DNA from: Octopus vulgaris | Taxonomy: Eukaryota | Direction of reading: 5' to 3' | Length of the DNA: 64,000 bases | Assembly: GCA_951406725.2 (NCBI GenBank) | Contig: OX597838.1 | Span: forward strand, 37,324,001 to 37,388,000 | In this document: positions 1-38,419 of the stretch, piece by piece | How the letters are laid out: each line of letters begins with the position of its first letter | How positions within the stretch are numbered: position 1 is the stretch's first letter | The notes under the pieces: generated by a model | Told to the model about the DNA's origin: nothing | Seen by the model: the letters and a program-made list of their open reading frames with translations, nothing else | Database searches by the model: none | Position numbers and translations under genes: made by a program

Positions 1-6
1 TATATC

Positions 7-145
7 TATATTGTATAGAGGGCATTAATACACATAAATGCCTCACACTAAGAGGGACAAAGTCATTACTACCATTTTGGTAGTAATGACTTTGTCCCTC
101 TTAGTGTGAGGCATTTATGTGTATTAATGCCCTCTATACAATATA
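7..145. repeat. Perfect fold-back palindrome (68-bp arms, TTT loop at 75-77) in a (TA)n context
   Basis: 7-74 is the exact reverse complement of 78-145 (..gtcattactacca ttt tggtagtaatgac..); a TA/TG microsatellite follows. Confidence 0.95.
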
Positions 146-403
146 TATATATATATATGCATTAACACATGCGTGTGTGTGAGTGTGTATGTATATATGT
201 GTATGTATATATATATATGTATAGATATGTGTGTGTATGTGTATATATATATATATATGTATAGATATGTGTGTGTATGTGTATATATATATATGTATAG
301 ATATGTGTGTGTATGTATATATATATATATATGTGTGTGTGTGCATGTATATATATATGTGTTTGTGTATGTATATATATATATGTGTGTGTGTGTATAT
401 ATA

Positions 404-455
404 AAAGGCGGTGCTCCAGCATGGCCGCAGTCAAATGACTGAAACAAGTAAAAGA
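404..455 (+). mobile_element. 3' tail fragment of SINE family S1
   Basis: aaggcggtgctccagcatggccgcagtcaaatgactgaaacaagtaaaag matches the tail of the full copies (e.g. 5137-5570). Confidence 0.85.
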
Positions 456-471
456 AAAAAAAAAAAGAAAA

Positions 472-514
<43 letters not shown>

Positions 515-1135
515 TATATATTTGTTTGAATGCGTGTATGTTGGTTTTCTTCAGTAATTTGTTATGAGGATTCATTTATTTGTGTGTGTCACTGAGCATG
601 TGAGTTTGTGTGTGTGCGTGACTGAGCATGTGTGTGTGACTGAGCATGTGTGTGTTTGTGTGTGTGTGCCTTTCAATCTATATATGTAAATTTATTTTTA
701 AAAATTTACCTGTGCACTCATGTCTATGTATGTCCATGTGGACAACTGTTTGTTTTCATTTTTAATCATAAAAATCTATATTCACTCATATTTATTTTCT
801 GTTTTTTTTTTCATTATTCTAATTTGTTTATTTTCTTCCATCCTTATTATTATTTTTAATTTTTTTCTTTTTCTATGTTTTGCTTTAAAATCAAATTTTC
901 AGTTTTTACATTAATTTTTCAGTTGCTAAAATTCTTATTTTTATTTAATCTATGTATTTTTTATTTTTGAATTTGATTTTGCTGTTTTATGCTTAATCTT
1001 TTATTTTGTTTATTATTTTCATTATGTATCCCCCACCCCTTCCCCTTAAGGAACAAGGGGGATAGGTTTGAACATGCAAAGCAGAGCATTCACTGCTTGT
1101 GAGTCCTTGCTCAATGGTAGCACAACGAGAATATA

Positions 1136-1369
1136 AGGCGGCGAGCTGGCAGAAACGTTAGCACACCGGGCGAAATTCTTAGCGGTATTTCGTCTGTGGC
1201 TACGTTCTGAGTTCAAATTTCGCCGAGGTCGACTTTGCCTTTCATCCTTTCGGGGTCGATAAAATAAGTACCAGTTATGCACTGGGGTCGATGTAATCGA
1301 CTTAATTCGTTTGTCTGTCCTTGTTTGTCCCCTCTATGTTTAGCCCCTTGTGGGTAGTAAAGAAATAGG
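1136..1369 (+). mobile_element. SINE family S2 (tRNA-like head; central gtcgactttgcctttcatcctttcggggtcgataaa domain)
   Basis: More than 12 near-identical copies in the window; A/B-box-like head (gagctggcagaaacgttag ... gagttcaaattc). Confidence 0.85.
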
Positions 1370-1760
1370 TAGCACAACTGGGAAAACAGAACATAAAAAC
1401 CACACAACGCAACATGTGGCTACATTAAAACTTCTACATGGCTCAATTCGTTTGTACCTGTTTGGACATTTCAGTCAAATATGCTCAACAAACATAAAGA
1501 GGCTTTGTTAACTGTTTAACTGTAGTGGAATTCTATGGGCAATTATTTAATAGACATGACATAAGGGTCTTGTTCAGCTGTGTCCCCTGTGTAAAAATAA
1601 TTTTAGTGAACACCCCTAAACAGCACACAGAGGCGCTATGCTCATGTTGGGTTAGCTCTGAATGCCCAACTCTATGGTTGTGGTCTATGATGCACAGGTG
1701 GTGTCCAGTGGTAGCAGAAGCAATGGCAGTGGCAGGAACAACAGCAACAGCAGCAGCAGT

Positions 1761-1955
1761 GTGGAGGCGCAATGGTCCAGTGGTTAGGGCAGCGGACTCG
1801 CGGTCATAAGAACGCAGTTTCAATTCCCAGATCAGGCATTGTGAGTGTTTATTGAGCAAAAACACCTCAGCTCCACGAGGCTTCGGCGAGGGGTGGGGGA
1901 TGAACCCTGCTGTACTCTTTCACCACATCTTTCTCTCACTCTTTCTTCCTACTTC
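1761..1955 (+). mobile_element. SINE family S3, 5' part (tRNA-derived head)
   Basis: Matches the 5' part of the full-length copy at 59712-60096. Confidence 0.8.
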
Positions 1956-2290
1956 TGCCACAAAGCAGAGGAACCATGGTGTGACCCACTATGGTGTGAC
2001 CCACTATGGTGTGGTAAACTTTCAGACCCTAGTCTAGATTGCGAATCCTCTGTACCTCAGGATGGTTCAGCTCTCCACCCGTTAAAAGCCACCGTTTACT
2101 GAATGAGGATAACAATGTAGCTTTCGCACCCGTGCAACCGCCAGTCTATCGCGTGTGGTGGGTGGATTTTCAAGTTGCCACACGCATTCTTAGTAGCTTA
2201 AAGATTATTCTTCGTGGCTAATGGTGTGAGTCTTGATTGGAAGAAGAAGACAACAGCAGCAACACAAACAATGTAGGGTCACATACATAG

Positions 2291-2610
2291 AAATATGTTG
2301 GAACAATGGAGGGCCCCTTTAAGCTGTGCCTAAATAACCACAGGTTCTCTTTTAGGATCCCAGAGAGGAACAACATTGCAGCATTGGCAAACTAAATTTG
2401 GTGTTTAAAATAACTGGGAATACCATAGAAGAGTAAATTGAAGCTACTAGAACCACCCCACACCTCAATGGATGGAAATGGTGCAAACTTTGCTTAGTCG
2501 AGAGGACAAGGATCCTTAAAAATTTGCTTGTTCTAGGGGCCTTCTTAAATTCAAAAAGTGAAGTGTTTAGTCTATACCCATATGATAGAAAATTCATAAT
2601 TGAATATTGA
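2291..2610 (+). pseudogene. Decayed Penelope-like element ORF, GIY-YIG endonuclease C-terminal part
   Basis: Manual translation gives KYVGTMEGPFKLCLNNHRFSFRIPERNNIAALAN*IWCLK, then after a frameshift GWKWCKLCLVERTRILKNLLVLGAFLNSKSEVFSLYPYDRKF. This matches the PLE motifs YIG.T...FK.R..NH..SF, LS.YIW.LK and C.LCL.EK..I...LN.RSE. Confidence 0.8.
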
Positions 2611-3289
2611 ATGGAAAACATAGAGAAACGTATATGAACTTACCCTTTTCAGACACAACTGAAATTGTTCAAAGGGTGTTGACCCCATCACGCCCAGAAG
2701 AAGTTTCGGTTTGAAAATATTTTCATTTCAGAAGTTTTACACCACCAAGCTGACCAAGATTATATTTTTACCTCCATTTGGGAAGAGGTTATGCACCCTC
2801 AACTAGCAGGTTTGGTGAGTCACTTGTGTTACTATGTGCAATAGTAGACCTGAAACCAATTATAACATTCTAATTAGCCGTAACCAATAATTACATAACA
2901 TGTTATTGCTCAAAAAACACTTCTTTCAGAGCATGGTTTTTATTGGACTTATGGACAACTGACCAAGATATATATATATAAAGGTTTGGTCGCTGTTTAG
3001 TTACATATTTAGGAGTTGGTTATAGATTTACTTATTGTATTTATTTACCAAAACTGTTGTGTATTGGGTAAATGTGTTTGAAAGTCGTGCTTTCTTTGGC
3101 ATGTTTGTTCCCAAACAACACTTATTTTAGTGCTGTTGACATTGCTGGACTGAATGGTAGTGCCCAGGTGTCAAAACCATAATGATATCTGTAGGGCAGC
3201 TGATGATGGAGGTATGTTGGATTGTTGGTATGGCTGTTTTTGTATATGTGGAATAGTATTATAACACAGCGTTTTGATATATATATATA

Positions 3290-4053
3290 TATGTCGCTTG
3301 TCGTTGGGTTTTCCCACGCCCGTCTCCGCGGGACCACTCTTCCATCTTCCCCTCCGCTGGAGTCCTTTTCCTAACCCCCCCCCCTTTTTTTTTTTTTTTT
3401 CGTTACACACACGCGCACACATATACACACATTGCTTAAACATATACATTACTCTTACACACATTCAATCTACTCGCCACTAATACTACCACGACACTGG
3501 ACACACACACACACTACTACTCAACACACGCTGGCACGCTACATACGCCCCCACCCCTTCTCCTCCCTCCCTTCCTCCCTTTTCTTACTACTGACCTTTG
3601 TCTGCTATGCTGCTGCTATGCTGACCACCGTCTTGCCCTACCTCACACGCCTACACACAGACGCACACACTAACACATACATATATTTTTTGTTTTTTTA
3701 CCTCGCCTCACACACACACATACACACACGCACACACTCACACATACACACACATCTGTTGCGTTACCAACCTTGTCTCCACTCTTTTGCCTTTAAAAAC
3801 CCACTTTGCTCTTGTTATCGTAAACATCCGCCTTTCACCATGTGCTACTCCTAACACCAGTCGTTTTTTTTCTCTATCTCCGTTGCCCGCTCCGGGATCT
3901 TTCTTTCCCTCTCTTCCTTCTTTATGTTTCCGACGAAGAGCTCCGCTCGAAACGTCATACCTCCCTGCTTCCATTTCCTGAGCGCCTATTAATAATAATA
4001 CTGTAATTGTTCCATTGTTGTTGTTTTTTTGTTTCCCGTTTGGATTAAAATTA

Positions 4054-4072
<19 letters not shown>
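3290..4072 (+). mobile_element. (TA)n-embedded PLE-like insert ending in a family-C-like pLTR with a degenerate hammerhead (3930-3956)
   Basis: Flanked by (TA)n on both sides. Contains ccgacga-a-gagc tcc gctc-gaaac-gtc followed by tcctgagcg..., similar to family C copies at 29003, 36846 and 38186. Confidence 0.6.
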
Positions 4073-4087
<15 letters not shown>

Positions 4088-4131
4088 AGTCAGTAAATGG
4101 TGGGGTTGTTTTAATTGCATGTGGAGAAATG

Positions 4132-4440
4132 ATAGAAAAGGAAAAAATAATAATAATAAGGCAGAATGCTAAATTGAAAGCAAATTTTAATATAAATGGA
4201 TGTAAGAAAGATTAAAAAAGAAAATCAAAACGGCTTCATTGTAAGGCAAATTTTCAAGATGAGGAAGGACAAAAAAAAATTTTTTTTGAATTGTTTTTCC
4301 CCTTCCTCATCTTAAAAGCATTTTTTGTTCCCTTCCTCATCTTGAAAATTTGCCTTGTAAGGAAAGCCAGTTTGATTTCCTTTTTTAATCTTTCTTACAC
4401 CCATTTATATTAAAATTTGCTTTCAATTTAGCATTCTGCC

Positions 4441-4472
<32 letters not shown>

Positions 4473-4486
4473 TATTCCTTTCCTAT
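4132..4486. repeat. Imperfect inverted repeat (~140-bp arms) between (TA)n tracts
   Basis: taataaggcagaatgctaaattgaaagcaaattttaatataaatgg... versus ...ccatttatattaaaatttgctttcaatttagcattctgccttatta. Confidence 0.9.
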
Positions 4487-5136
4487 ATATATATATATAA
4501 CATATTATTAATATGGTCAGGTTAGTTAATGATTGTATTTCTAGTCAACGGAATATCAACGAGGCTTTAGCCATCCCATTTGTGAGTAACATATCCATAA
4601 TGTTTGTCTCTTGTTCTGGGAAACACCAAACTGAAAATGCTTGTCTTGAGTAATAGGAAACTGATAATTTTCAAAATCCTGCATTGCATGATAATGTGTG
4701 AACTCCACACTGACTAATAAGAAAAATAATAATGCTTGGATCCTTCCTGATAATGCTTGAATTCTTTTCCTGAATTTTAAGTAAGCTTATGTTAACAGAA
4801 ATTTTTGCTTTCGTTAATGTCAAATTGATAATGCTTGTATCTGTCTTCATTGATGTCTCATCAATAATGTTTGATCTGCGGCTGCCACGTACTGCATATT
4901 TGAAACCGTGGTCTATGCCTTTGTTGTCTTGAAAATATTGTAGATATTTTAACCACAAAGTCATTATTAAACCCCCATAAACATTATGTTAACTACATAA
5001 CCATTAAACCTATATACACCAAATTTATAACTCCATAACCATCATTAAACCTCCTTAGCCATCATTACTAAACAGGCATAAACATGTCCAAGATATGATT
5101 GATATATATGTATGTGTATATATGTATGGTATATAT

Positions 5137-5305
5137 AGGCGCAGGAGTGGCTGTGTGGTAAGTAGCTTGCTAACCAACCACATGGTTCCGGGTTCAGTCC
5201 CACTGCGTGGCATCTTGGGCAAGTGTCTTCTGCTATAGCCCCGGGCCGACCAATGCCTTGTGAGTGGATGTGGTAGACGGAAACTGAAAGAAGCCTGTCG
5301 TATAT

Positions 5306-5363
<58 letters not shown>

Positions 5364-5570
5364 TTGTGTGTCTGTGTTTGACCCCCACACCATTGCTTGA
5401 CAACCGATGCTGGTGCGTTTACGTCCCCGTCATTTAGTGGTTCGGCAAAAGAGACCGATAGAATAAGTACTGGGCTTACAAAGAATAAGTCCCGGGGTCA
5501 ATTTGCTCGACTAAAGGCGGTGCTCCAGCATGGTCGCAGTTAAATGACTGAAACAAGTAAAAGTAAAAGT
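5137..5570 (+). mobile_element. SINE family S1, full length (tRNA-derived head, internal TA/TG microsatellite, LINE-like tail)
   Basis: Head ggcgcaggagtggctgtgtggtaag...ccgggttcagtccc; about 15 copies in the window. Confidence 0.9.
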
Positions 5571-6118
5571 ATGTATGTACGTGTGTGTGTGTGTGTGTGT
5601 GTGTGTAGAGTTTACTGTTCTGTTGAGGTAGGATCAATAAAAGAAATGCACCATTCTTGTGAATATTGGGGGGTGGGTGTATGTTTGTTCCCCACCATTG
5701 CTTGACAACTGGTGTAGTTTTGTTTACGTCCCTGTGACTTAGTAGTTTAGCAAAAGTGATCGATAGAATAAATATTCCAGTTGATTTGTTTAATTAAAAG
5801 TTCTTCAAAGTGATGTCTCAGCATGGCTGAGGTCTAATCAGTAAAACAAGTAAATTTATACATATATAAATACATATATATGTATATCAGTGTGTGTGTA
5901 GCCCCGGGCCGACCAATGCCTTGTGAATGGATTTGGTAGATGGAAACTGAAAGAAGCCCGTTGTATATATGTATGTATATATGTGTGTGTGTGTATGTTT
6001 GTGTATCTGTGTTTGTCCCCCTAGCATTGCTTGACAACCGATGCTGGTGTGTTTACGTCCCCGTTACTTAGCGGTTTGGCAAAAGAGACTGATGAAGATT
6101 ATATATACATATATATAT

Positions 6119-6482
6119 AGGTGCAGGAGTGGCTGTGTGGCAAGTAGCTTGCCAACCAGCCACATGGTTCCGGGTTCAGTCCTACTGTGTGACATCTTGG
6201 GCAAGTGTCTTCTACTATAGCCTTGTGAGTGGATTTGGTAGATGGAAACTGAAAGAAGCCTGACATATATGTATATATATATAAGTGTGTGTGTCTGTGT
6301 TTGTACCCCTAGCTTGACAACAATGCTGGTATGTTTACGTCCCCGTCACTTAGCGGTTCAGCAAAAAGAGACCGATAGAATAAGTACTGGGCTTACAAAG
6401 AATAAGTCCCGGGGTCGATTTGCTCGACTAGAGGCATGGCCGCAGTCAAATGACTGAAACAAGTAAAAAGAGTAATAGAGTA
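6119..6482 (+). mobile_element. SINE family S1 (partial copies also at ~5680-5850 and ~5897-6095)
   Basis: Aligns by eye to 5137-5570. Confidence 0.85.
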
Positions 6483-6522
<40 letters not shown>

Positions 6523-6919
6523 TTCTGTGTAATGTTCACACTCACATAGATGCAGTTACAGACATACACAAACGTATGTATGCGTGAGTGTTACAAAAAA
6601 AAACAAAAAATGCGAGTGAAAATGCAGAGGACAGCTCAAGGGAGAAGGAAACATTATTTTTGTTTCATTTTAGCATCTCTTTCACGTGTCTCTGGTCTTC
6701 CCTTTTTATTCAATTATCAACGATGTGAACAGAAGAGCGAAATGGTGGAGAGAAGGAGAGGTGGAGAGGTGGAGGGGTGTTGTAAGCTGTACCATTAGAC
6801 TTCTCAATAAAGATAGCATTTCTTAGCAAGAACAACGGTCTTAGCTCTTTCTTCCCTTTCTCTCTTTCTCTCTAATCATCATCATTATCCAATCAATAAC
6901 AATAACGACAGCAAAAATA

Positions 6920-7821
6920 ATTTGACTTCATATTTCTCCCTAACCACAATCATTTCTCTCCCTCTCTCTCTCATTCATTCACTATCTCTCATTCATTCAC
7001 TCTCTCTCTCTCTCATTCACACACTCTCTCTCATTCACACACACTCTCTCTCTCTCATTCACTCTCTCTCTCTCTCTCATTTTACACTCTCTCTCTCATT
7101 CACTCTCTCTCTGTCTCATTCACTCTCTCTCTCTCTCGTTCACTCCCTCTCTCTCATTCTCTCTCTCTCATTCACTCTCTCTCATTTGCTTGTTCTTTCT
7201 GTTCTGGGCTCTCTCTCTTTCTTTCTTTCCTTCATTCTCCCCCTCTTCTTTCTCATTCATTCTCCTTTTTCTCTCTCTCTCATTCATTCATTCCGTCCCA
7301 TCATCTTTGTCTGGCTGTCTTTCTTTTCATCCATTCCCCCTCCCCATTCTTTCTGTCTTTCTTTCATTCATTCTCTCCTTCTCATTCACATGCTCTTTCT
7401 GACTTCTTATCTCTCTTTCACTGTCGCTTGTTTTTTTCTGTTCTGGGTTCTCTCTCTCCTTTTCCTTCCTTCCTTCTCCCCACTTCTTTCTCTTTTTCTT
7501 ATTCATTCATTGTCCCATCATCTTTGGCTGTCTGTCTCTCTTTTCATCCATTCTCCCCCACCCATTCTTTCTATGATTCATTCCTTCTCTCTCTCATTTT
7601 TTCTCTTTCATTCTTTCTCTCTCTCTCTCTCTCTCTCGTTCTTTCTCTCTTCCTTCCTCTCTTTCTCTCTTCTGTGTCTCTCAACTTCTGTTTGTAACAC
7701 CTTTATCCTCTCACCTCTGTCTCCATACAAGACTACCCACATCCTTTCTCTCTCCTCATTCCTCTCCCTTTTCATTCCTTCTCTCTCTCTCCTTCTCTGC
7801 CTCCTCCTTCCTCTCCTACAG
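6920..7821 (+). repeat. ~900-bp CT-rich (CT/CATT) low-complexity polypyrimidine tract ending in CTACAG
   Basis: Direct composition; ends at an acceptor-like AG at 7820-7821. Confidence 0.9.
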
Positions 7822-8434
7822 CATTAGCCACACCAACTCCCACTTCATGGCAAAGCATTCCCTTCTTCTCCAGACATGTCCAGTCAAAGACAAGACAAAC
7901 TTCATTGCCGACACCACCACCACCTTCCCTTCCACCAACCTCTCTTCCACCACAAAAAAAACACAACAACAACCACCACCACAACTGCCTTGTCATCCTC
8001 ACATGGGACTGTCTTGGATTATTTTATTGTGCCAAAAACTTCTGAAGACAATGGAGCCTGAATAGCAATGAGCTAATGGAATCTCTCAAGTAGAACTAAG
8101 TTGAATTAGAGCCAAACCAGAAGATTCCAGAGAACTTTTAGCAATCCTGGAAGTCTGAAAGTTTTCTGCGGCTGGTCACTAATTCCAATGACGCTCTACA
8201 GATTACCACCAACAGGTTAATTCTATAACGTCACCTTTTTATTTTAAAGAATGCTCTGGGGATGGACGGGTCATTGCATGTCTTGTTTTTTTTTATTGTT
8301 TTTAATGGTGTTTTTTTGTTGTTTTTTTTGGGGGGGGGTATTTAGTTTTTGGTTTTAGAGGGTGGTTGTGGGTAGTGGGGGGTTGGGTATATTTTGTTTC
8401 TGATTTTATTTTAGGCTATTTATTTAGCAATAGT

Positions 8435-9000
8435 ATGATGGTGATGTTGGGGTGGTAGCACTGATGATGTTGGCTGTGGTGGTGGTGATGATAGTTGTGG
8501 TAGTGGTGGTGGTGATGATGGTGGTGGTGATGATGATGGTGGTAGGTGGTGGTGGTGGTGATGATGATGGTGGTGGTGATGATGATGGTGGTGTTGGTAG
8601 TTGTGGTAGTGGTGGTGGTGGTGATGATAGTTGTGGTAGTGGTGGTGATGATGATAGTGGTGATGATGATAGTTGTGGTAGTGGTGGTGGTGGTGATGAT
8701 AGTTGTGGTGAGTGGTGATGGTGGTGATGATGATGGTAGTGATGATGATAGTTGTGGTAGTGGTGGTGGTGGTGATGATGATAGTTGTGGTAGTGGTGGT
8801 GATGATGGTGGTGGTGATGATGATGATGGTGGTGGTGATGATGATGGTGGTGGTGATGATGATGGTGGTGGTGATGATGATGGTGGTGATGATGATATTT
8901 GTGGTAGTGGTGGTGATGATGCTGGTTGTACTGATGGTGGTGGTAATGATGTTACTGGTATTGTTGGTGATGGTGGTAGTAATGTTAAGTGGTGGGGGAG
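8435..9000. repeat. Degenerate (GGT/GAT/AGT)n trinucleotide tract
   Basis: Direct sequence; the ORFs here are poly-V/M/D/H artefacts. Confidence 0.9.
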
Positions 9001-9438
9001 GGAGTAAATGAAACGTTTGGGTGGGGGCGAGGTGGAAAATGAAATGCATTTTTCTTTTTATATGTATGTATTTGTATGCAAAAGAGATACGCCCTGGCAC
9101 TAGCAGCAATGACAACAACAACATTCGCAACTGTAACAACAACAACAACAGTCGCAAATGAAAGCGTACACACACACACTAATAGAGTCACGCATGTACA
9201 TATACACACAGGTTTACATATTCGCATACAGAGCAGAGGCACTTGCAAACATTCACACACTTTCAAGAACACACACTAAAAGCATTCTCACACATTTTCA
9301 TACACACATATATATATACACACACACATATACATGCACACTCACACACATATATATATATATCCACGCAGATACATGCATATATATATATATACATACA
9401 CACACACATCTATATCCCTACATAGATACATGCACATC

Positions 9439-9479
<41 letters not shown>

Positions 9480-9576
9480 GTCTATATTCACACATAGATA
9501 CATGCACATCTACATATATATATATATATATACACATGCACACACATCTATATCCATACATAGATACTTGCACATC

Positions 9577-9610
<34 letters not shown>

Positions 9611-10075
9611 TCTATATCCTCACATAGATACATGCATATGCATATACATGCACATATATATGTATATCCACACATATGTATATATGCATATGTATATGCA
9701 CATACACATTCGCACACACACATGGATACAGATGCACAAATATACACAGACACACACATAAATTTATGAATACACATGCATGCAAGTATTTCGTCCGCAG
9801 ACATCTACACTTACAAACCTACTCATGCACACACACACACACACACACATATATAAATAAATTATACAAAACAAATACAATAAACACAATAAAAAAAGGA
9901 ACCAAAAGACTGTTCTGGAATAAATAAATAATGGTGGTTCTTTTAACCTGAATAGTCTAATGTCACCACTTTAACCATTTTCGTGTTCTGTGCACGAATG
10001 TGCATGTATATATAGATGCGTATATATACGTACATCTGTGCATATGCAAACATGTTTTGGTATATATGTGAGTAA

Positions 10076-10308
10076 AGGCTGTGAGCTGGCAGAAACGTTA
10101 GCACGCTGGGCGAAATGCTGAGCAGTATTTCGTCTGCCGCTACGTTCTGAGTTCAAATTCTGCCGAGGTCGACTTTGCCTTTCAAAATTTTTGGGGTCGA
10201 TTAAATAAGTACCAATTATGCACTGGGGTCGATATAATCAACTTAATCCGTTTGTCTGCCCTTGTTTGTCCTCTCTGTCTTTAGCCCCTTGTGGGTAGTA
10301 AAGAAATA
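10076..10308 (+). mobile_element. SINE family S2
   Basis: Matches 1136-1369. Confidence 0.85.
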
Positions 10309-10365
10309 TGTATATATGTGTGTATGCATATATGTATATGTGAATGTATGTGTACACGTGTGTAT

Positions 10366-10752
10366 ACTCTTTTACTTGTTTCATTCATTTTGACTGCGGC
10401 CATGCTGGAGCACCGCCTTCTAGTCGAGCAAATCGACCCCAGGACTTATTCTTTGTAAGCCTAGTACTTATTCTATCGGTCTCTTTTGCTGAACCGCTAA
10501 GTTACCAGGACGTAAACACACCAGCATCGGTTGTCAAGCAATGGTGTGGGGGACAAACACAGACACACAAACATATACATACACACACACATATATACAT
10601 ATATACGACGGGCTTCTTCCAGTTTCCGTCTACCAAATCCACTCACAAGGCTTTGGTTGGCCCGAGGCTATAGTAGAAGACACTTGCCCAAGGTGGGACT
10701 GAACCCAGAACCATGTGGTTGGTAAGCAAGCTACTTACCACACATCCACTTC
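10366..10752 (-). mobile_element. SINE family S1
   Basis: Reverse complement of the S1 consensus. Confidence 0.85.
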
Positions 10753-11089
10753 TGCTGTTCCATTTTTTAAAGCATAGAGCTGATGTCACATCAAGCATTG
10801 AATCAGGTGTGAAGAAGTTTTGGCTCCTTCTATCAAGATTCCAGGGTCACCCATGATGGAGGCCAAAGAACTCTGGCACAACAGCATGAGCTTTGTCAAG
10901 TCAAATGCTGCAACTCTGGGCCAGAGGTTTCATGGTTCTTCTTGCTGCACCACTTGTCCTCTCTCTCTTGAACCAGATCTAATGGCTTGCTTTCTAACCT
11001 AGTATTTGTTACATGTTAACAAGAATATATATCTGCAGTTGGCAAATATGAACAGAGCAGAGTATATCTCTTAACAATTAAACATCACG

Positions 11090-11758
11090 ATTTGGACTGC
11101 ATTTCGAGCGTGATCGTTCCGAGCGTCACCTTACTGGCACTTGTGCCCGTGCTAGTAGGATGCTAAGAGCATCATCAGAGCATGATCGTTGCCAGAGCAG
11201 CCAACTGGCTTCCATGCCATTGGCATGTAAAAGGGCACCATTCGAGCATGATCATTACCAAAGTCGCCTTACAGGCACCTGTGCTGGGGGCATGTGTAAA
11301 AGGATTTGAGTGAGGTCGTTGTCAGTACCGCCTGACTGCCCCCCCCCCCATAATGGTGGCACGTAAAAAGCACCCACTACACTCTCAGAGTGGTTGGCAT
11401 TAGGAAGGGCATCCAGCTGTAGAAACTCTGAAAAATCAAGATTGGAGCCTGGTGTAGCCATCTATTTCTTTATTGCCCACAGGGGGCTAAACATAGAGGG
11501 GACAAACAAAGACAGACAAAGGGATTAAGTCAAATACATCGACCCCATTGCGTAACTGGTACTTATTTGATCGACCCCGAAATGATGAAAGGCAAAGTCG
11601 ACCTTGGCGGAATTTGATCTCAAAACGTAGCGGCAGACGAAATACGGCTACACATTTCGCCCGGCCTGGTGCAGCCATCTGGTTCGCCAGCCCTCAGTCA
11701 AAATCGTCCAACCCATGCTAGCATGGAAAGCGGACGTTAAACGATGATGATGATGATG
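11090..11758 (+). mobile_element. Retroposon 3' end with (GAT)n tail (RTE-type tail; other copies ~14105-14175, 14575-14745, 17109-17400), interrupted by an S2 SINE
   Basis: ggcattaggaagggcatccagctgtagaaact ... acccatgctagcatggaaagcggacgttaaacgatgatgatg; the reverse complement recurs at 17109-17400. Confidence 0.75.
11464..11663 (-). mobile_element. 5'-truncated S2 SINE with a 17-bp target-site duplication
   Basis: gcctggtgtagccatct (11447-11463) and gcctggtgcagccatct (11664-11680) flank it, with 1 mismatch. Confidence 0.85.
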
Positions 11759-12229
11759 CCTTCCCCATTCGTCAGCTCCTCAAAAGAAGAAATAAAGGTC
11801 TAATTACATAGGAACCATGAAGTGCAATTCAAACACACACAATCAAATTCTAAACACATCTTCCGTTACAGTTTCAAGAGGTTTAGCAGCAGCATAAAAC
11901 CAACCATCATATGGATTGATAGAACACTGCATCTTTTCACCAGATAGGTGATCAATAAAAAAAATAAAAACAGAAAAAAACGATTACCAAATGCAAAAAT
12001 ACATAAAAATAGAAGAAAAAACAATTATAACAAACACATCAACATTTCCTTTGCAAAATTGAGCTCGTCGATCAAAACGCTGATAATGTCAATGTGTTAT
12101 ATAATTGACTCATATTTCTGAAAACGTAAATGGCTACATATAAAATTCAGCATATATCGCAGCATTAGTTTAGAGTAAATTTGATTGGCTGTTACAAGAT
12201 CAGCTCAAACAGTGACTATACAATTATAC

Positions 12230-12414
12230 ATGTGTGTGCGTGTGTCTATGCACATGTGTGTGTATATATATGTATGTATATATATATATATATATGTGTA
12301 TGTATATATGTATGTATATATATACGTGTGTATGTATGTATATATATATATGTATATATATACGTGTATGTATGTATGTATATATATATGTATGTATATA
12401 CGTGTGTATGTATG

Positions 12415-12454
<40 letters not shown>

Positions 12455-12502
12455 TGTATATATATATATATGTATGTATATATATATATATATGTATGTA
12501 TG

Positions 12503-12537
<35 letters not shown>

Positions 12538-12592
12538 GTATGTATATATATATATGTATGTATGTATATATATATATGTATATATATGTATG

Positions 12593-12625
<33 letters not shown>

Positions 12626-12871
12626 ATATATATATATATATGTATGTATATATATATATGTATGTATGTATGTGTATGTATGTAAATGGCATAGGTAAAC
12701 ACAGTTTGAGATTCAAAAGGAACAACAACAACAACAACAACAGGTATATATATTCACGAACGTCTCTTACTGTCGGTTGAATATGGTGCTTGGTGAAATT
12801 GATGTTTGTGCTTCCAAGTGAATGTACACACAAAAACTTGCAAGCATAAGTACTAACATAGAGTAAATAAA

Positions 12872-12914
<43 letters not shown>

Positions 12915-13037
12915 ATATATATATGTATGTATATATATATAGTCTCATGTAGTAAACTTACATATGCACCATACATCCATATATATATATACAGATTTAT
13001 AAAAATACATATATGCACACATATGCATGCATATGAA

Positions 13038-13069
<32 letters not shown>

Positions 13070-13364
13070 CATGCATAAATATATATATGCATAAATGTAT
13101 ATATGCATATATGTATGTGTATATATAGATATGTGCAAAAATATATATATGCATACATGTGTATTTGTATGTATATATATATGTATGTGTATATGTATGT
13201 ATATATATATATATGTGTGTGCATAACTATATATATGCATATATGTATGTGTTTATGTATGTATATATATATATATGTATGTGTATATGTATATATATAT
13301 GTATGTGTATGAATATATATATATATATATATGTGTGTGTATATGTATGTATATATATATATGC

Positions 13365-13407
<43 letters not shown>

Positions 13408-13436
13408 TATATGTGCATGTGAATGTATATACATAT
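12230..13436. repeat. Degenerate (TA)n/(TATG)n/(TG)n microsatellite region (with a short unique island ~12685-12870)
   Basis: Direct sequence. Confidence 0.9.
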
Positions 13437-13610
13437 GGTGGAGCAAAAATATGGCAATATCCTCATCCTGCCCTACAAAAACTGTGCCTTGTCAAAAGCA
13501 ATTAAGGTTGTTTTCTTTTTATTGAATGATATTTTTTACTTACTTAGAGTTCTATTGGAGGCTGACTGTAACTACCACTTAGCTAATACTCTCTCTGTAT
13601 TCTTTTCGTA

Positions 13611-13687
<77 letters not shown>

Positions 13688-13690
<3 letters not shown>

Positions 13691-14090
13691 CGCAGGAGTG
13701 GCTGTGTGGTAAGTAGCTCGTTTACCAACCACATGGTTCCGGGTTCAGTCCCACTGCGTGGCATCTTGAGCAAGTGTCTTCTGCTATAGGGCAGGGTCGA
13801 CCAATGCCTTGTGAGTGGATTTGGTAGACGGAAACTGAAAAGAAGCCTGTCGTATATATGTATATATATGTGTGTGTGTGTTTGTGTGTCTGTGGTTGTC
13901 CCCCTACCATTGCTTGACAACCGATGCTGGTGTGTTTACGTCCCCATCACTTAGCAGTTCGGCAAATGAGACCGATAGAATAAGTACTGAGCTTACAAAG
14001 AATAAATCCCGGGGTCGATTTGCTCAACTAAAGGCGGTGCTCCAGCATGGCCGCAGTCAAATGACTGAAACAAGTAAAAAAGAGAAAGAG
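13688..14090 (+). mobile_element. SINE family S1
   Basis: Full-length match to S1. Confidence 0.88.
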
Positions 14091-14214
14091 AGATATATAC
14101 ACATGCTCACACCAGCCCCAGTCAAACCGTCCAACCCCTGCCAGCATGGACAACAGACATTAAATGATAATGATCATCTATATACATATATATATATATA
14201 TATATAAACATATA

Positions 14215-14309
14215 TCATTGGTAGTGAAGTAGGCAGCATGTCAGTCTCATAATCAAGCAACTTATGTTGAGGAATCTAAAAGTCGTGAGTTCAATCCTCA
14301 CCTGGGGCA
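14215..14309 (+). pseudogene. tRNA-Met(CAT) elongator-type pseudogene with a 22-nt intron-like insert (14252-14273)
   Basis: tagtgaagtaggcagcatg tcagt ctCATa [atcaagcaacttatgttgagga] atctaaaagtc gtgagttcaatcctcac ctggggca aligns to eukaryotic tRNA-Met. The insert lies between canonical positions 37 and 38. The acceptor stem is mismatched; an oligo-T run lies at ~14322-14328. Confidence 0.8.
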
Positions 14310-14842
14310 CATCATTTGTAATTTTTTTGTCATAGGCGCTGGAGTATGGTATATAGCTTGCTTGCCAACTACGTTTCTGGTTTCAGTCCCACTGCATGGC
14401 ACCTTGGTCAAGTGTCTTCTTCTATAGCCTCAGGCCCTCCAAAGCCTTGTGAGTGGATTTGGAAGACAGAAACTGAAAGAAGCCTGAGGCGGGTGAATGT
14501 TGGTGACTGGGAGAGCACCAAGTCTTACAAAATTCTGGCTGAACTTATCTTTTCTAACTCAAGAAAGCATGGAATCATCATCATCATTTAACGTGGGTTG
14601 GACAGTGTGACCATAGCTGGCAAGCTGGGTGGTGGTGGTGTACCAGACTCCAGTCTGATTTGGCATGGTTTCTACAGCTGGATGCCCTTTCTGACACCAA
14701 CAACATTACAGAATGTCCTAGGTGCTTTTAAGTGGCACATTGCATGGGGTGTGGCTCCATAAATATTAATATGACACTGTTGATAATGAAGATGTTTATT
14801 TATGTTTACATTTGTTTGTGTGTATATATATATATATATATA

Positions 14843-15023
14843 GTCAATAATAAAAGGGTAAAATTAATTAATTATTAATTAATTTTATTTACCAAGTAGT
14901 GTTCAGTATGTAAAAAGACCATTCACGGTATATTTAAAACATTACGTTATATAATTAGGGTTCAGTAAAATAAAAAAATTATTTTACTGAACCCTAATTA
15001 TATAACGTAATGTTTTAAATATA
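14843..15023. mobile_element. Family A PLE-like terminal fragment with a perfect 45-bp-arm hairpin (14929-15023)
   Basis: Homologous to 35801-35925. Arms tatatttaaaacattacgttatataattagggttcagtaaaataa and its reverse complement; (TA)n on both sides. Confidence 0.8.
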
Positions 15024-15984
15024 TATATATATACATACATATATATGTTTGCATGTTTGCATGTATAAATACACATTGCTTTATATATACATTCAGTGTT
15101 ATATGTTTGCACGTTCTCTCTAATTTTTCTCTCTTTTTATAAGTGTGTGTGTGGTGTTGCTTTTTAAATTTATTTGTATAAGCTTGTCTGTTCGCTCTAT
15201 ATTTGAAATATTTGCTTAATTATAATTTGCATGTTGCAAAAACACCCCCCCCCCCTAATAATCCATATGAAAAGGTAAGTCTTTTTCTAAATATTTTTTC
15301 CAACATCAGAAATGGTCAGAGTTGAATTAGATATGATGATTAGGAATGTATCAAATATTAAATGTTAGTTAACATTATTCTGTAGGTGAGAGAATAAGGG
15401 AGACAATTTTGAGCATGTTCAACAATTAACTTACATCAGCAAGGTTGTTGCCTTCACCAGGAATTTTCCAATATTTTTCTCATATGTATTCTTATTTTGT
15501 TCTAATTGTTAGAATATCAAAGTAAATAGTGAAAGCAGTTCAGAATTTTATTTTCATTTAAACACTACAAGAGCTAATTAAACATATATTCAATATTAAG
15601 ATTGACTCAACCATCTGTTTACACGTCATCTACACCAATTTATGATTCAGCTGCTAGGAAATAGCAATTGCTATTTAAATCAGTCAGAAACTATAAACAT
15701 GTATTTTTCTATATAAAAACACCCATCTATATGTATGGTCATTCATATATCTATCTATATATATGTGTGTGTATGTACCATCATTAAAATTGATTTTAAC
15801 CATCCCTTCTCATACTATCTACATCAATTTTGGTACAACTGGTAAGCAATAGCAATTGCTATTTAAAGCGGTCACAAACTGTGTATATATATATATATAT
15901 ATGCACCCAGCTATGTGTGTGTATACAGGCACTCACAGATACACACACATGTATATATATATATATACACACACACACATATAA

Positions 15985-16310
15985 GTGAAGGCATGTGGTT
16001 TAATAGTTAGAGGTATTTGGCTCACAATCGTGAGTTCAATTCCTGGTGACGTGTTGTGTCCTTAAGCAAGACACTTTATTTCATGTTGTTCCAGTCCACT
16101 CAGCTGGCAAAAATAAGTTGTACCTGTATTTCAAAGGGCCAACCTTGTCACACTTTGTGTCACGCTGAATTTCCCCGAGAACTACGTTAAGGTTACATAT
16201 GTCTGTGGAATGCTCAGCATGTTAATTTCCCGAGCATGTTAATTTCCCGAGCAAGCTGTTCTGTTGATCGTATCAGCTGTGATCCTCGTCATCATAGCTA
16301 ATAAAGTGCT
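15985..16310 (+). mobile_element. SINE family S4 (tRNA head + CORE-like domain + tail shared with S3), decayed
   Basis: tgtgtccttaagcaagacactttatttcatgttgttccagtccactcagctggcaaaaat; matches the reverse complement of 58949-59268. Confidence 0.8.
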
Positions 16311-16533
16311 CCTTTATATATATATATATATATATAAACATTCAGATGAATATGGTACTTAAGTTGAGGCACCAGAATTTAGTATGGTATTATCCATACA
16401 ATTTCAAAGTAAGGTGATTAAAATCAAAATAAATAACAAGGATATCCAGAGGTAATGCTGTACAATTGTTTCATGCAACTCCATTTAATTGAACGATGCA
16501 ATCATTACATCAATTTAAAATGCATAGCATGAT

Positions 16534-16619
16534 TGCTCTGAAGATTGCTCTGCATTTTAAATTGATGTAATGATTGCATCGTTCAATTAAATGGAGTTGC
16601 ATGAAACAATTGTACAGCA
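16534..16619 (+). ncRNA. Type-I hammerhead ribozyme motif, family B, inside fold-back insert 16338-16654
   Basis: tgct CTGAAGA ttgctc...(58 nt)...gagttgcat GAAAC aatt GTA cagca; helix I is imperfect at the inversion junction. Confidence 0.7.
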
Positions 16620-16838
16620 TTACCTCTGGATACCCTTGTTGCTTATTTTGAATTATATATATATATATATATATAAAAATTAATCAAAGGACATACTAGG
16701 TATGTCAACCTGCTTGAAATAACAGTCAAAACTCTTATTATTAAATCGGCAAAAATACACCGATGAAAACTACAGAAATCAAACAAAGGCAAAATCAGGT
16801 TAAGATAATCTACTAACACACATTTAAGTATTTGGACT

Positions 16839-16889
16839 CACGTGGATCGATTTCTGCATTGGTAAAGACCTTAGCTTCTTCAGCACGTG
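16839..16889 (-). ncRNA. Minimal type-I hammerhead ribozyme in TA-flanked insert 16680-17090
   Basis: Minus strand reads cacgtg CTGAAGA agctaaggtctttaccaatgca GAAAT cg ATC cacgtg: 6-bp helix I, intact core, palindromic helix III. Confidence 0.85.
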
Positions 16890-17398
16890 TTACCATTATT
16901 AGAGACTCCCAACCCATTGCGTCGAAGTCTGTGCTGCAACTGAATTCGTTTCACGTCGAAATCATAACAGCCACTGGGGTAAAATAATCTCGATACAATT
17001 TATGAGAAAAATAATTCACCAAAAATTAATTTACATTGTTACATTGGATAATAATAGAATTAATGACACCTTCGTAAATTAATTTTTGGTATATATATAT
17101 ATACATATATCATCATCATCATCATCATCGTTTAATGTCCGTTCTCCATGCTAGCATGGGTTGGACGATTCGACCGGGGATCTGGGAAGCCAGAAAGCTG
17201 CACCAAGCTCCAGTCTTATCTGGCAATGTTTCTACAGCTGGATGCCCTTTCTAATGCCAACCACTCCGTGAGTGTAGTGGGTGCTTTTTATGTGCCACCT
17301 GAACTGGTGCCAGGCGAGGCTGGCATCGGCCATGGTCGGATTGGTGCATTTTACGTGCCACCTGCATGGAAGCCAGTCGAGGCGGCACTGGCTTCGGC

Positions 17399-17434
<36 letters not shown>

Positions 17435-17436
<2 letters not shown>

Positions 17437-17675
17437 AAAGGAAATGTTGATCTCTATATCCAACTAATCCAGAAATGGCGTTCTCAAGTAATCTATATAC
17501 GTGTGATCTTTCGTTATTTTTTCCCTCTATAACTGCGTGAATTATTTTTAAGTATACATTGTCTGGGAGTCTTTTCTTAGAGTAGAAGAAATAGCTAAGG
17601 TTTTTTGGCCGCTATTTCTAAAAGTTCGGTGCGTGGTAAAGTAAATTATTTTACTGAACCCTAATTATATAACGT
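17435..17675 (+). mobile_element. Family A PLE-like pLTR fragment (degenerate GAAA half only)
   Basis: Reverse complement of the 40340-40540 and 35905-36100 family sequence; (TA)n on both sides. Confidence 0.7.
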
Positions 17676-17780
17676 ATATATATATATATATATATTATAC
17701 ATGAATATGGCATGATTTTACTTGATATTTATTTTTACAATTTGTTTGTCTTCAACGTTTGTTGTTTTTTTCCATTGCAG

Positions 17781-17955
17781 TGCACGGAAGAGACCAGTTC
17801 CGTACCACCGACCCACACCACCTACACCAAGTTCTTTGAGCAGCTTTTCTTACCGATCCTACAGCAGATCTCGGAGTCCATCTCGAGAGCTGAGTTGTAG
17901 TCGAAGTCGCAGCCGTAGTCACAGCCACAGCAGATGTTACAGTCGCGGCCGCTAG
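17781..17955 (+). CDS. Srrm234: Last coding exon of Srrm2/3/4 (Srrm234): C-terminal half of the eMIC domain plus RS-rich tail
   Basis: Strong acceptor tttgttgtttttttccattgcag|, phase 2. Reads (S)ARKRPVPYHRPTPPTPSSLSSFSYRSYSRSRSPSRELSCSRSRSRSHSHSRCYSRGR*, matching the SRRM3/SRRM4 motif RRITSARKRPIPYYRPSPSS followed by RS repeats. Confidence 0.88.
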
Positions 17956-18935
17956 AAGTGAGGGGGGGAATGAAAAAGAGAGAGGGGAGAGATCAAAGCA
18001 TACGCAAAAGACAAATGAAGAGGAGGAGGAGGAGGAGGTAGTGAAGGGGTTAAGAGAGAAAGAGAAAGGAAGGATTAACGAGTGGGTTTGAGAGGAGCAG
18101 AGAGAGAGAGAAAGAGAGTGTGAGTGGAGAAATACAAGATTGGGACCAAATTATAAGTCGATGAGCGAGACCATGATATTTCACAAGAGAGAGAGAGAGA
18201 GTTAGTGGAAGAGGAAATGAAGATGTGTGAGTGTGTATACTTGTATATGTGCATGAGTGTGTATGTACATGTATGTGTGTGTGTATATATATGTATATAT
18301 ATATGTAAATGTATGTACATGTATATATGAATGTATGTATATTTATATGTATGCATGTATTTATAAGTATAGATGCTTACAAGTAGTGAAAGGGAAAAAG
18401 TGAGAGTGAGTAAAGGAGAATAAAAAACTGAGAAAAAAATGGATTTTAAGTGTGTGTGTGTGTGTGAAAGAGAGAAACAGAGAGAAGGAGTATGAGTGAA
18501 AGAGGAAGTACGAGTGATAGTATGAATGAGAGAAAGATCTATATATATATATATATAGCAGATAATTTAGATAATCTAAATGAAATATTCTTAACTAAGT
18601 TCTTAGTAATTGCTCCAGGATGATTACTAAATTTGCTAATGTACTTAAAGATTGGTCAACGGTTTACGATATTGGAAGTAAGAGTCACTGTGTAAATTAA
18701 GCGTAATATATGTAGTGTATGTGTGAGAAAGCAAGAATTTGGCAGCCAGACCCATGACATAAGCCAGTATGCTACAGATTCCACAGATTGTATAAAGAAG
18801 AGGGTGGGGCATTGTTGCATTGCGGGGATAAGTCTTCCGCCCTCGCTGAGTCCGTCTGTCTGTTTGGTAGAGCAGAGCATGATCAGATTCTCTCGATATT
18901 CCAAACATTAAATGAATCTTATTGTCTTTGGCCCT

Positions 18936-30441: not shown

Positions 30442-30639
30442 CTTTAAATAAATATTCAAAACTTTTAAACTACCAAATTTATTTATACATTATATTTATA
30501 TTTATACATATTTACATATATTGTTATATATATCTATTTATCTATATTTTTAATTTAATAAAAATTTTCACACGGGTATAACTTTATGATGAGTTTGGAT
30601 ATTAATTTCCTTATATTAATAATAATATTAAATTATTAA

Positions 30640-31735
<1,096 letters not shown>

Positions 31736-32156
31736 CTGTATGATGTGGAAAATATTCCACCAGCACTGTCCGAATGATGTTGGCATCACCTTCAAAATAC
31801 ATCCAAGGCTTGGACCACGTGCCATCCGTCCACAACAAAAATCTAAATCGTATCACATAACGACAATACGGCACAACTATTTCACCTCAATTGGACCCGC
31901 TCTCTTCAACATTACACCAGGACATGTCAAAAAAGAAACTGACCACACAAAATTCAAGAAGTCTTTGGACAAATTACTTCAAACAGTCTCGGACAAACCA
32001 CCCACACCCGGATATGTCTCCGCAAACAATAACTCTCTGCTCGAATGGCACTTGGTGCCCAAATCCTGAATTGAAAGACTTTGCCAGATGGTGCTATTAA
32101 GTTAGATATGGCCTGGGCCAATACTGGCCAAAACCTTTCTAAGTTATTCTAAGTTA
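31736..32156 (+). mobile_element. 5'-truncated LINE 3' end (CR1/L2 group ORF2 C-terminus + 3'UTR)
   Basis: ORF ..[50 protein letters not shown].. is homologous to the end of 34285-35226; the tail ends in a ttctaagtta repeat. Confidence 0.8.
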
Positions 32157-32157
32157 T

Positions 32158-32202
<45 letters not shown>

Positions 32203-32211
32203 CATACATAC

Positions 32212-32252
<41 letters not shown>

Positions 32253-32310
32253 CATACATATATACATACATACATACATACATATATACATACATACATA
32301 TATACATACA

Positions 32311-32344
<34 letters not shown>

Positions 32345-32346
32345 CA

Positions 32347-32380
<34 letters not shown>

Positions 32381-32806
32381 CATACATATATACATACATA
32401 TATACATACATATATATATACATACATACATATATACATACATACATATACATACATATATATATATATACATACATATATATATAGATACATACATATA
32501 TACATATATATATATACATACATATATATATACATACGTACATATATACATACATATATACATACATACATATATACATATATATATATACATACATATA
32601 TATACATATATATATATACATACATATATATATACATACATATATATATATACATATACATATATATATACATACATATATATATATACATACATATATA
32701 TATATATACATACATATATATATATACATACATATATATATATACATACATATATATATATACATACATATATATATATACATACATATATATATATACA
32801 TACATA

Positions 32807-32866
<60 letters not shown>

Positions 32867-32881
32867 CATACATATATATAT

Positions 32882-32922
<41 letters not shown>

Positions 32923-33052
32923 CATATATATATATACATATATATACATACATACATATATATATATACATATATATATATACATACATATATATATATA
33001 CATATATATACATACATACATATATATATATACATATATACATACATACATA

Positions 33053-33084
<32 letters not shown>

Positions 33085-33143
33085 CATATATATATATATA
33101 CATATATATACATACATACATATATATATATATACATATATAT

Positions 33144-33174
<31 letters not shown>

Positions 33175-33319
33175 CATATATATATACATATATATATATA
33201 TACATACATATATATATATATATACACACATATATACATACATATATATATATATACACATATATACATACATATATATATATATATACACATATATACA
33301 TACATATATATATATACAC

Positions 33320-33374
<55 letters not shown>

Positions 33375-33522
33375 CATATACATACATATATACATATACA
33401 TACATATATACATATACATATTATATATATATATACATACATACATATATACATACATACATATATATACATATATATACATATATACATACATATATAC
33501 ATATATACATACATATATATAC

Positions 33523-33557
<35 letters not shown>

Positions 33558-33916
33558 CATTTATATACATATATACATACATATATATACATATACATAC
33601 ATATACATATATACATACATATATATACATATACATACATATATATACATATACATACATACATATATATACATATACATACATATATATACATATACAT
33701 ACATATATATACATATACATACATATATATACATATACATACATATATACACATATACATACATATATATACATATACATACATATATATACATACATAC
33801 ATATATATACATATATATACATACATATATATATACATATACATACATATATATACATATACATACATATATATACATATACATACATATATATACATAT
33901 ACATACATATATATAC

Positions 33917-33949
<33 letters not shown>

Positions 33950-34100
33950 CATATACATACATATATATACATATACATACATATACATATACATACATAT
34001 ATATACATACATATACATACATATACATACATATATATATATATACATACATATACATACATATACATACATATATATATATATATACATATACATACAT

Positions 34101-34151
<51 letters not shown>

Positions 34152-34216
34152 CATACATATATATACATATACATACATATATATACATATACATACATAT
34201 ATATACATATACATAC

Positions 34217-34248
<32 letters not shown>

Positions 34249-34275
34249 ATACATATATATATACATATACACACA
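32157..34275. repeat. ~2.1-kb degenerate (TA)n/(TACA)n microsatellite
   Basis: Direct sequence. Confidence 0.95.
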
Positions 34276-34276
34276 C

Positions 34277-35292
34277 GACCTCAGTTGCTAAGATGGCCAC
34301 CCTTGATAGCTATGCAGATGACACAAAAGTCTCCCACAATACAAAACCCTGGAAATATTGCACATCTGCAACAGGAGTTGGATACAATATACAGGTGGGC
34401 TGAGGACAACAACATACAGTTTAATGCAGGTAAGTTCCAGGCCCTGCGCTACTGGTACACAAAGCTAAACGACATGGTGACTGGATACACTGGCCTGGGA
34501 AGAATTGCAATTCCTGAGTCAAAATCAGTGCGTGACCTGGGCATTGACATGAGCAATGATGCATCTTTCCAAGTGCATATTACTAATCTGGTGATAAAAT
34601 GCAGACGGCTAGATGGATGGGTTCTCCGAACTTTCAGAACAAGAGAGAAGGAGACACTGATGGTCCTGTGGAAAACTTTCGTCCTCAGCCGCTTGGACTA
34701 CTGCTCCCAACTATGGTCACCACACAATATAAAACTAACAGCAGAACTTGAAGCAATTCAAAGAAGCTACACAAAGAAGATCGTCTCAATGCAACATGTC
34801 AGCTACTGGGAAAGACTGAAAGTATTAAAACTCTTCTCCCTAGTGCGAAGGCAGGAGAGATATGCAGTGATATACATTTGGAAAATCCTGGAGGATCTTG
34901 TCCAAAACTTTATCATTCAAAATTACCCCAACCGCAGAACGGGGCGCCACTGCATGGTGCCAAAGATTCTAACATCCCCATCAAAATACAGGACCAGATA
35001 CTGCAACAGCTTGGGTTTCAGAGGACCACAGCTCTTTAACATCCTCCCTAAATGCCTGAGAGACTTGCATGGTGTGGATGTGGGTTTCTTTAAAACCAAA
35101 CTGGATCTCTTCTTGTCGGGGGTCCCAGATGAACCTACCTCACGACAGGAGACACAGATGCGGGCAGCGGCATCGAACTCCCTTGTTGACCAAGTGCCAC
35201 GTATCAGAGGTGGATTCACATACTAGTGTAGCTCATTCTGCGGTGGTGCCCCAGCATGGCCGCGGCTTTCGGGCTAAAACATTTTAAAGGAT
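34277..35292 (+). mobile_element. 5'-truncated LINE (CR1/L2 group): RT YADD motif to C-terminus, plus 3'UTR
   Basis: agc tat gca gat gac aca aaa = SYADDTK (frameshifted), then [72 protein letters not shown]. Confidence 0.92.
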
Positions 35293-38189: not shown

Positions 38190-38354
38190 GGAGAGTATTC
38201 ACAAAAAGAAACAAAAGACGAAGACAGGTGGTGTAGAAAACAATGTATTATAACGCTCGGGAATAGAAAAAGTCATTAGCGTTTCGAACCTACGCTCTTC
38301 CACTGAAAGGAACACAGAAAGAGGAGAGAAAAATATGTGTGTAGTGGTTAGCGA

Positions 38355-38355
<1 letters not shown>
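38186..38355 (-). mobile_element. Family C short retroposon
   Basis: Homologous to 29003-29204; inserted between TA and TG tracts. Confidence 0.75.
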
Positions 38356-38399
<44 letters not shown>

Positions 38400-38419
38400 G
38401 CACACTCACACATACATAC

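Follow-up and report, generated by a model that had tools for sequence, protein, structure and literature searches.

The exon at positions 17781-17955 of the analysed window (the whole stretch of 64,000 nt from Octopus vulgaris, C25:37324001-37388000) raises the question of which gene it ends and how the octopus divides the eMIC and the canonical Srrm2-like role between genes. Taken alone, the exon belongs to a well-known class; the finding is the two-gene arrangement to which it leads.

Exon 12 ends an eMIC-bearing gene

The 175-nt exon lies on the + strand and encodes (S)ARKRPVPYHRP, which is followed by an RS tail and a TAG stop. Its AG acceptor (17779-17780) is preceded by a U-rich tract. 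The features in this part of the window are:

1..17780, + strand: 3′ part of the last intron (intron start C25:37317629, 6.4 kb before the window)
17701..17780, + strand: end of the 24,152-nt last intron, with the AG acceptor and its polypyrimidine tract, whose U content is not unusual within this gene
17781..17955, + strand: exon 12, the last coding exon, with the C-terminal eMIC half, RS tail and TAG; from sequence and from spliced entry in 4/4 runs
17956..18230, + strand: start of the 3′ UTR; contigs run to at least about 18200, and the first AATAAA is at 18419

A sequence-only reading had assigned this exon to the eMIC terminus of a Srrm234-family gene and placed the preceding RRITS exon outside the window, behind an intron of more than 17.7 kb. 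Both statements are borne out. Exon 11 (C25:37317482-37317628, 147 nt) is located 6.4 kb before the window start and matches Pfam SRRM_C (PF15230) with 32.6 bits, which is above the cut-off and the only SRRM_C match of the genome. It ends with RRIT plus AG before the GT donor, the junction codon is Ser, and the last intron is 24,152 nt long and of phase 2. Exon 12 completes the motif, and the eMIC/SRRM_C domain thereby extends across a phase-2 junction, as is characteristic of the Srrm234 family. In the profile comparison that had been suggested, exon 12 alone matches SRRM_C weakly (E 0.18), and the match improves to E 0.004 when the read-through flank is included.

The predicted spliced entry at 17781 is found as well. 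In 4/4 runs, a contig carries the last bases of exon 11 into the exon-12 acceptor. The compared runs originate from four studies and two organisms and were taken from 24 listed runs, 20 of which contain the exon-12 stretch; they were chosen for holding exon 12, so that isoforms skipping it are invisible by design. They are sets of contigs, bear no tissue labels, and give neither level nor tissue; that they are RNA is a guess, none being recorded as such. Exon 12 is real and spliced, and with it the coding part of an eMIC-bearing SRRM gene ends.

The window holds 206 low-repeat open reading frames of at least 55 aa. The two that overlap exon 12 were excluded, and among the 204 scanned against Pfam only a DDE transposase exceeded the cut-off, which fits the claim that exon 12 is the only host coding exon in the 64 kb, in a scan that short exons would escape. 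Three sub-cut-off matches to viral families were taken as chance. The transposase fragment belongs to DDE_3 (window 38254-38823, + strand, E 1e-7). Three further stretches (window 34300-35226, - strand; 31850-32069, + strand; 61821-62261, + strand) have no Pfam match and are presumably LINE reverse transcriptase remnants, as they resemble its C-terminal part by eye. Window 30600-34300 is a near-pure TA/CA microsatellite of about 3.7 kb with a GC content of 16-20% in 2-kb bins.

A probable twelve-exon gene on C25

A profile search for cwf21 (PF08312) yields two loci. One is C27:11415; the other, C25:35789896, lies 1.55 Mb upstream of exon 12 and shares its strand. The upstream gene had been expected to be a Srrm2-like gene with a cwf21 domain. 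The domain is present, but the gene is not the canonical Srrm2-like one, a role that appears to be held by the C27 copy. Upstream of exon 12, the C25 gene is modelled with the following exons (first position and length):

C25:35789609, 358 nt, + strand: exon 1, first half of cwf21
C25:36065940, 99 nt, + strand: exon 2, second half of cwf21
C25:36736527, 168 nt, + strand: exon 3, decayed THQ block
C25:37035543, 69 nt, + strand: exon 4
C25:37138430, 63 nt, + strand: exon 5
C25:37208470, 45 nt, + strand: exon 6
C25:37218172, 105 nt, + strand: exon 7
C25:37254260, 282 nt, + strand: exon 8
C25:37273758, 81 nt, + strand: exon 9, from splice scores and the length sum only
C25:37301351, 417 nt, + strand: exon 10
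C25:37317482, 147 nt, + strand: exon 11, N-terminal eMIC half

Joined together, the 12 exons can be read through for 660 aa in one frame with no stop inside; they extend over 1,552,347 bases. All acceptors are AG, and 11/11 introns are GT-AG, of phase 2, and between 9.7 and 670 kb long. Exon 1 matches the cwf21 profile with 39.9 bits, above the cut-off, and exon 2, which lies 276 kb further and is spliced to exon 1, continues the domain. Exon 1 is spliced at its acceptor in 3/4 runs and joined to the next exon in 2/4. The protein consists of 23% S, 13% R, and 9% K and has an Arg/Ser-rich middle. Exon 1 has no PDB match at E 0.01, an absence that its proline run makes weak evidence.

Eight of the exons were found by composition, splice scores, and homology in C25:36.066-37.324 Mb (no N), downstream of the 276-kb intron 1. 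Exons 3-11 sum to 1,377 nt, which is the exact upstream length of the X15 eMIC contig before the junction. Exon 9 is the only candidate between exons 8 and 10 in which both splice sites score and both ends are of phase 2, and one reason for accepting it was that it brings the sum to this length. The site C25:37289730 was discarded as an exon because it has no donor. The phase-2 candidates at 36401464, 36759383, and 37150358 show no homology and would break the sum.

Among the four runs, no single contig was found that covers both exon 1 and exon 12. The two ends are linked by the 1,377-nt sum in X15, by the reading frame of P0235, and by the lengths of the X3 and X8 contigs. P0235 (352 aa), presumably from another cephalopod, contains homologues of exons 1-8 in one frame; within C25 residues 1-387, 209 positions are identical. 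For the long contigs of X3 and X8, the length implies a start inside the CCG repeat of exon 1; they were not placed on exon 1, for which another first exon or a filter effect is possible. The X15 cwf21 contig covers exons 1-2 and runs 30 nt beyond them, an overlap such as adjoining contigs should have. Additionally, one abalone protein matches the + strand of C25 colinearly, with its residues 36-81, 81-107, 445-494, and 494-541 in order, and residues 1-288 of the same protein match the C27 locus as a single block. Exon 12 likely ends one 12-exon transcription unit of about 1.55 Mb.

In 3/4 runs, a 5′ exon is spliced into coding exon 1 (L003:1212-1214), which makes the gene longer than 1.55 Mb. 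Searches of the genome with 0 or 2 mismatches and of the 100 kb upstream did not locate this exon; a gap may hide it, or it may be made up of two exons. In X2 and X15, contigs are interrupted where exon 3 begins (C25:36736527), which implies a second upstream sequence there, either unspliced intron or an alternative first exon leading to a cwf21-less, SRRM4-like form. At the boundary of exons 4 and 5, the Haliotis asinina isoforms P0149/P0148 and P0027/P0026 differ by an 8-residue insert, possibly a microexon within the regulator itself, and no counterpart was found in the octopus intron. Two microexon candidates on the + strand and none on the - strand were obtained within the C25 gene (1.32 Mb); both end in a local-repeat motif and were rejected.

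With exon 1 and exon 11 as queries, no octopus protein of the C25 gene was matched in the collection searched, and none there spans the gene, in agreement with the suggestion that it is easily missed by annotation.

An intronless copy with the canonical N-terminus

The second cwf21 locus is an intronless gene:

C27:11247-12158: intronless paralogue of 303 codons with the canonical N-terminus and no eMIC

Its frame is uninterrupted across the positions of the C25 introns and the locus is unlinked, as in a retrogene. Over 68% of its length, the protein is 100% identical to a named Octopus vulgaris protein. Its cluster includes O. sinensis XP_029656664 (289 aa); Sepia pharaonis CAE1318731 (259 aa) belongs to the next one (86%), and both proteins stop at the same lysine-rich point. 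Many molluscan and other relatives are 218-226 aa long and stop at the equivalent exon end. From these end points, the relatives would represent a short ancestral isoform of which C27 is the putative retrocopy. If the copy is older than the octopus-cuttlefish split, a poly(A) remnant and a target-site duplication would be expected to have disappeared. P0035, a public 216-aa O. vulgaris model, departs from the 303-aa frame near residue 205 and has a different end; it is likely a mis-spliced prediction.

The C27 protein aligns with residues 1-252 of human SRRM2 and with the 26-residue SRRM2 chain of 6qdv. The first 26 residues of SRRM2, which we take to be the part inserted at the catalytic centre, fit this chain. 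SRm300/Cwc21 is located at the catalytic centre as a binding partner of Prp8 and Snu114, and it stabilises the switch loop of Prp8 (PMC5835773, PMC6380292).

The two-gene architecture is very probable. It is also probable, with somewhat less confidence, that C25 is a dedicated SRRM3-like eMIC gene that arose after the C27 retrocopy took the housekeeping job. As C27 keeps the canonical N-terminus without an eMIC, the ancestral splicing gene has likely been split into a housekeeping and a neural version, as in vertebrates. The proposed sequence starts with retroposition of the short ancestral isoform, which would have generated C27 before octopus and cuttlefish diverged. The C27 protein would enter the activated spliceosome like SRRM2/Cwc21. 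Subsequently, the C25 locus, relieved of housekeeping, would have lost its spliceosome-core segments, and by analogy with mammals and flies its protein may promote microexon inclusion through contacts of the eMIC with U2AF/SF1. The eMIC would be confined to neurons mainly through transcription of C25 and not through an ELAV-controlled choice of the last exon. At known elongation rates, a 1.55-Mb transcript would need many hours to be made. One may speculate that such a transcript would favour non-dividing cells.

Control of the last exon

Vertebrates restrict the eMIC by transcribing Srrm3/4, and non-vertebrates by processing Srrm234, in Drosophila via Elav/Fne (PMC8797185, PMC10551640). The octopus could accordingly possess two genes and still gate the eMIC post-transcriptionally: C25 would be broadly expressed, and ELAV-type proteins would choose between early polyadenylation (after exon 5 or 11) and exon 12, as in Drosophila. 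This agrees with the published rule for non-vertebrates (PMC8797185), and the abalone has both an eMIC and a non-eMIC last exon. Read-through stops follow exon 11, an ATTAAA is found 22 nt into the last intron, where intronic polyadenylation is possible, and the exon-12 acceptor contains three UUUNUUU motifs in 80 nt, which places it in the top 2% of random windows. However, no RS-rich competing last exon was found among the 70 pyrimidine-rich acceptors of the 24-kb intron. The acceptors of exons 4, 5, and 11 have at least as many motifs, and the range over the other 11 acceptors of the gene is 0-10, so that the exon-12 acceptor is not distinctive among the 12 and the proposal of ELAV-type sites at its U-rich tract finds no support here. 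With the N-terminus decayed, a C25 isoform without the eMIC would moreover have little role left. Post-transcriptional gating is on balance unlikely.

Quite improbable is the division of C25 into more than one transcription unit, in which a cwf21 gene would be followed by an SRRM4-like eMIC gene or isoform that lacks cwf21 and starts from an internal promoter before exon 3. The sequence entering at the exon 3 start in X2 and X15 and the unplaced long X3 and X8 contigs would be explained by it. P0235, however, joins exons 1-8 in one frame, all exon phases match, and the lengths of the X3 and X8 contigs point into the exon 1 repeat. An extra internal promoter is compatible with a dedicated eMIC gene on C25.

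Segment decay and phylogeny

Identities to abalone were counted over the N-terminal 26 residues, the linker, the cwf21 core, and the THQ block, in this order:

C27: 23/26, 21/26, 36/52, 40/55
C25: 10/26, 6/26, 41/52, 19/55
Frog SRRM3: 8/26, 8/26, 36/52, 8/55
Turtle SRRM2: 23/26, 17/26, 34/52, 35/55

P0235 follows the C25 pattern. Within the octopus, the N-terminal peptide and the THQ block are decayed only in the eMIC gene, which keeps the cwf21 core; this combination is a measure of our own, set on two SRRM3 proteins, and not a published criterion. In an ungapped 39-residue eMIC window that was chosen around the junction, C25 has 36/39 identities to abalone and oyster and 35-36/39 across three molluscs vs 22-23/39 to two echinoderms and 24/39 to three SRRM3-like proteins. 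The canonical N-terminus and the eMIC are found in one protein in abalone, oyster, Solemya, and two echinoderms. The octopus has two cwf21 loci and does not show this single-gene form.

In a tree of 37 rows and 146 columns, the short and the diverged cephalopod proteins each form a clade with 100/100 support, with stems of 0.30 and 0.97. The tree keeps the two cephalopod copies apart. A topology that unites them is not rejected by the AU test (p 0.365), and the same is true of one that groups all diverged copies (p 0.238). In the free tree, C25 is placed among the molluscs (93/87 with one bivalve) and is not grouped with the vertebrate paralogues. The tree cannot date or resolve the duplication. 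Several diverged copies (P0034, P0150, P0197, P0207, L003:1240), including nemertean, cephalopod, and fish-like SRRM3 proteins, start with MYDG or MFDG vs MYNG in the canonical ones.

An ancient split would trace the diverged eMIC genes of vertebrates, of cephalopods, and of the nemertean Tubulanus back to a single paralogue of early bilaterians that other lineages lost. It would account for the decay of the same segments in all three, for the MYDG/MFDG starts of several copies, and for a joint clade that the AU test tolerates, but it is highly improbable. Many losses would be required, gastropods, bivalves, annelids, echinoderms, and insects would have had to retain an eMIC on their canonical gene, and both the eMIC identities and the free tree ally C25 with molluscs.

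Comparison with known systems

The C25/C27 pair resembles vertebrate SRRM3 (SRRM4/nSR100) and SRRM2 in that a separate eMIC gene stands beside a canonical paralogue without the eMIC. Like C25, vertebrate SRRM3 has an intact cwf21 core, a decayed N-terminal peptide and THQ block, an RS middle, and a terminal RRITSARKRP. In contrast, the eMIC of C25 is mollusc-like (36/39 vs 24/39), and the gene is probably not an orthologue of SRRM3. It also differs in spanning 1.55 Mb, and the canonical partner in the octopus is an intronless 303-aa copy, in contrast to the 2,752 aa of SRRM2.

Drosophila Srrm234 shares with C25 an eMIC encoded by two exons, with the C-terminal half in a distal last exon, and a cwf21 domain in the same gene. 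It is a single gene with an ELAV/Fne-controlled alternative last exon (PMC8797185, PMC10551640), whereas the octopus has two loci, a competing last exon was not found, and C25 has lost the canonical N-terminus.

The Srrm234 proteins of the molluscs Haliotis asinina (XP_067651386), Saccostrea echinata (XP_061196464), and Solemya velum (KAL5016739) agree with C25 in a near-identical eMIC, the block order, and motifs of the middle part. Unlike the octopus, they combine the canonical N-terminus and the eMIC in one protein, and the abalone has both eMIC and non-eMIC last exons.

A parallel in gene number is found in the nemertean Tubulanus polymorphus, which was compared by protein models and is a long branch that is not placed in the tree. 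Of its genes LOC141900009 and LOC141903573 (P0034, P0062), one is canonical without an eMIC in the model examined and one is diverged with the first eMIC half.

Implications for cephalopod neural splicing

There is an even chance that coleoids independently repeated the vertebrate solution. A retrocopy would have taken the core spliceosome role, the parent would have become a megabase-sized, neuron-transcribed eMIC master gene, and the nemertean would have done so a third time, with the same two segments decayed each time. No description of the two-gene octopus arrangement was found in the literature searched; Torres-Mendez 2019 and its supplements, which lie beyond that search, may cover cephalopods. 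If true, the octopus would be an exception to the published rule (PMC8797185), and the two largest-brained lineages would have converged at the molecular level on the master switch of neural splicing. From the segments lost each time, one could tell the parts of SRRM2 that work in the catalytic spliceosome from those that serve the eMIC. Given that no spanning protein is present in the collection searched, expression atlases may miss or fragment the C25 gene. A dedicated gene could be knocked out or counted in single cells without touching housekeeping splicing, which would make the cephalopod microexon programme testable.
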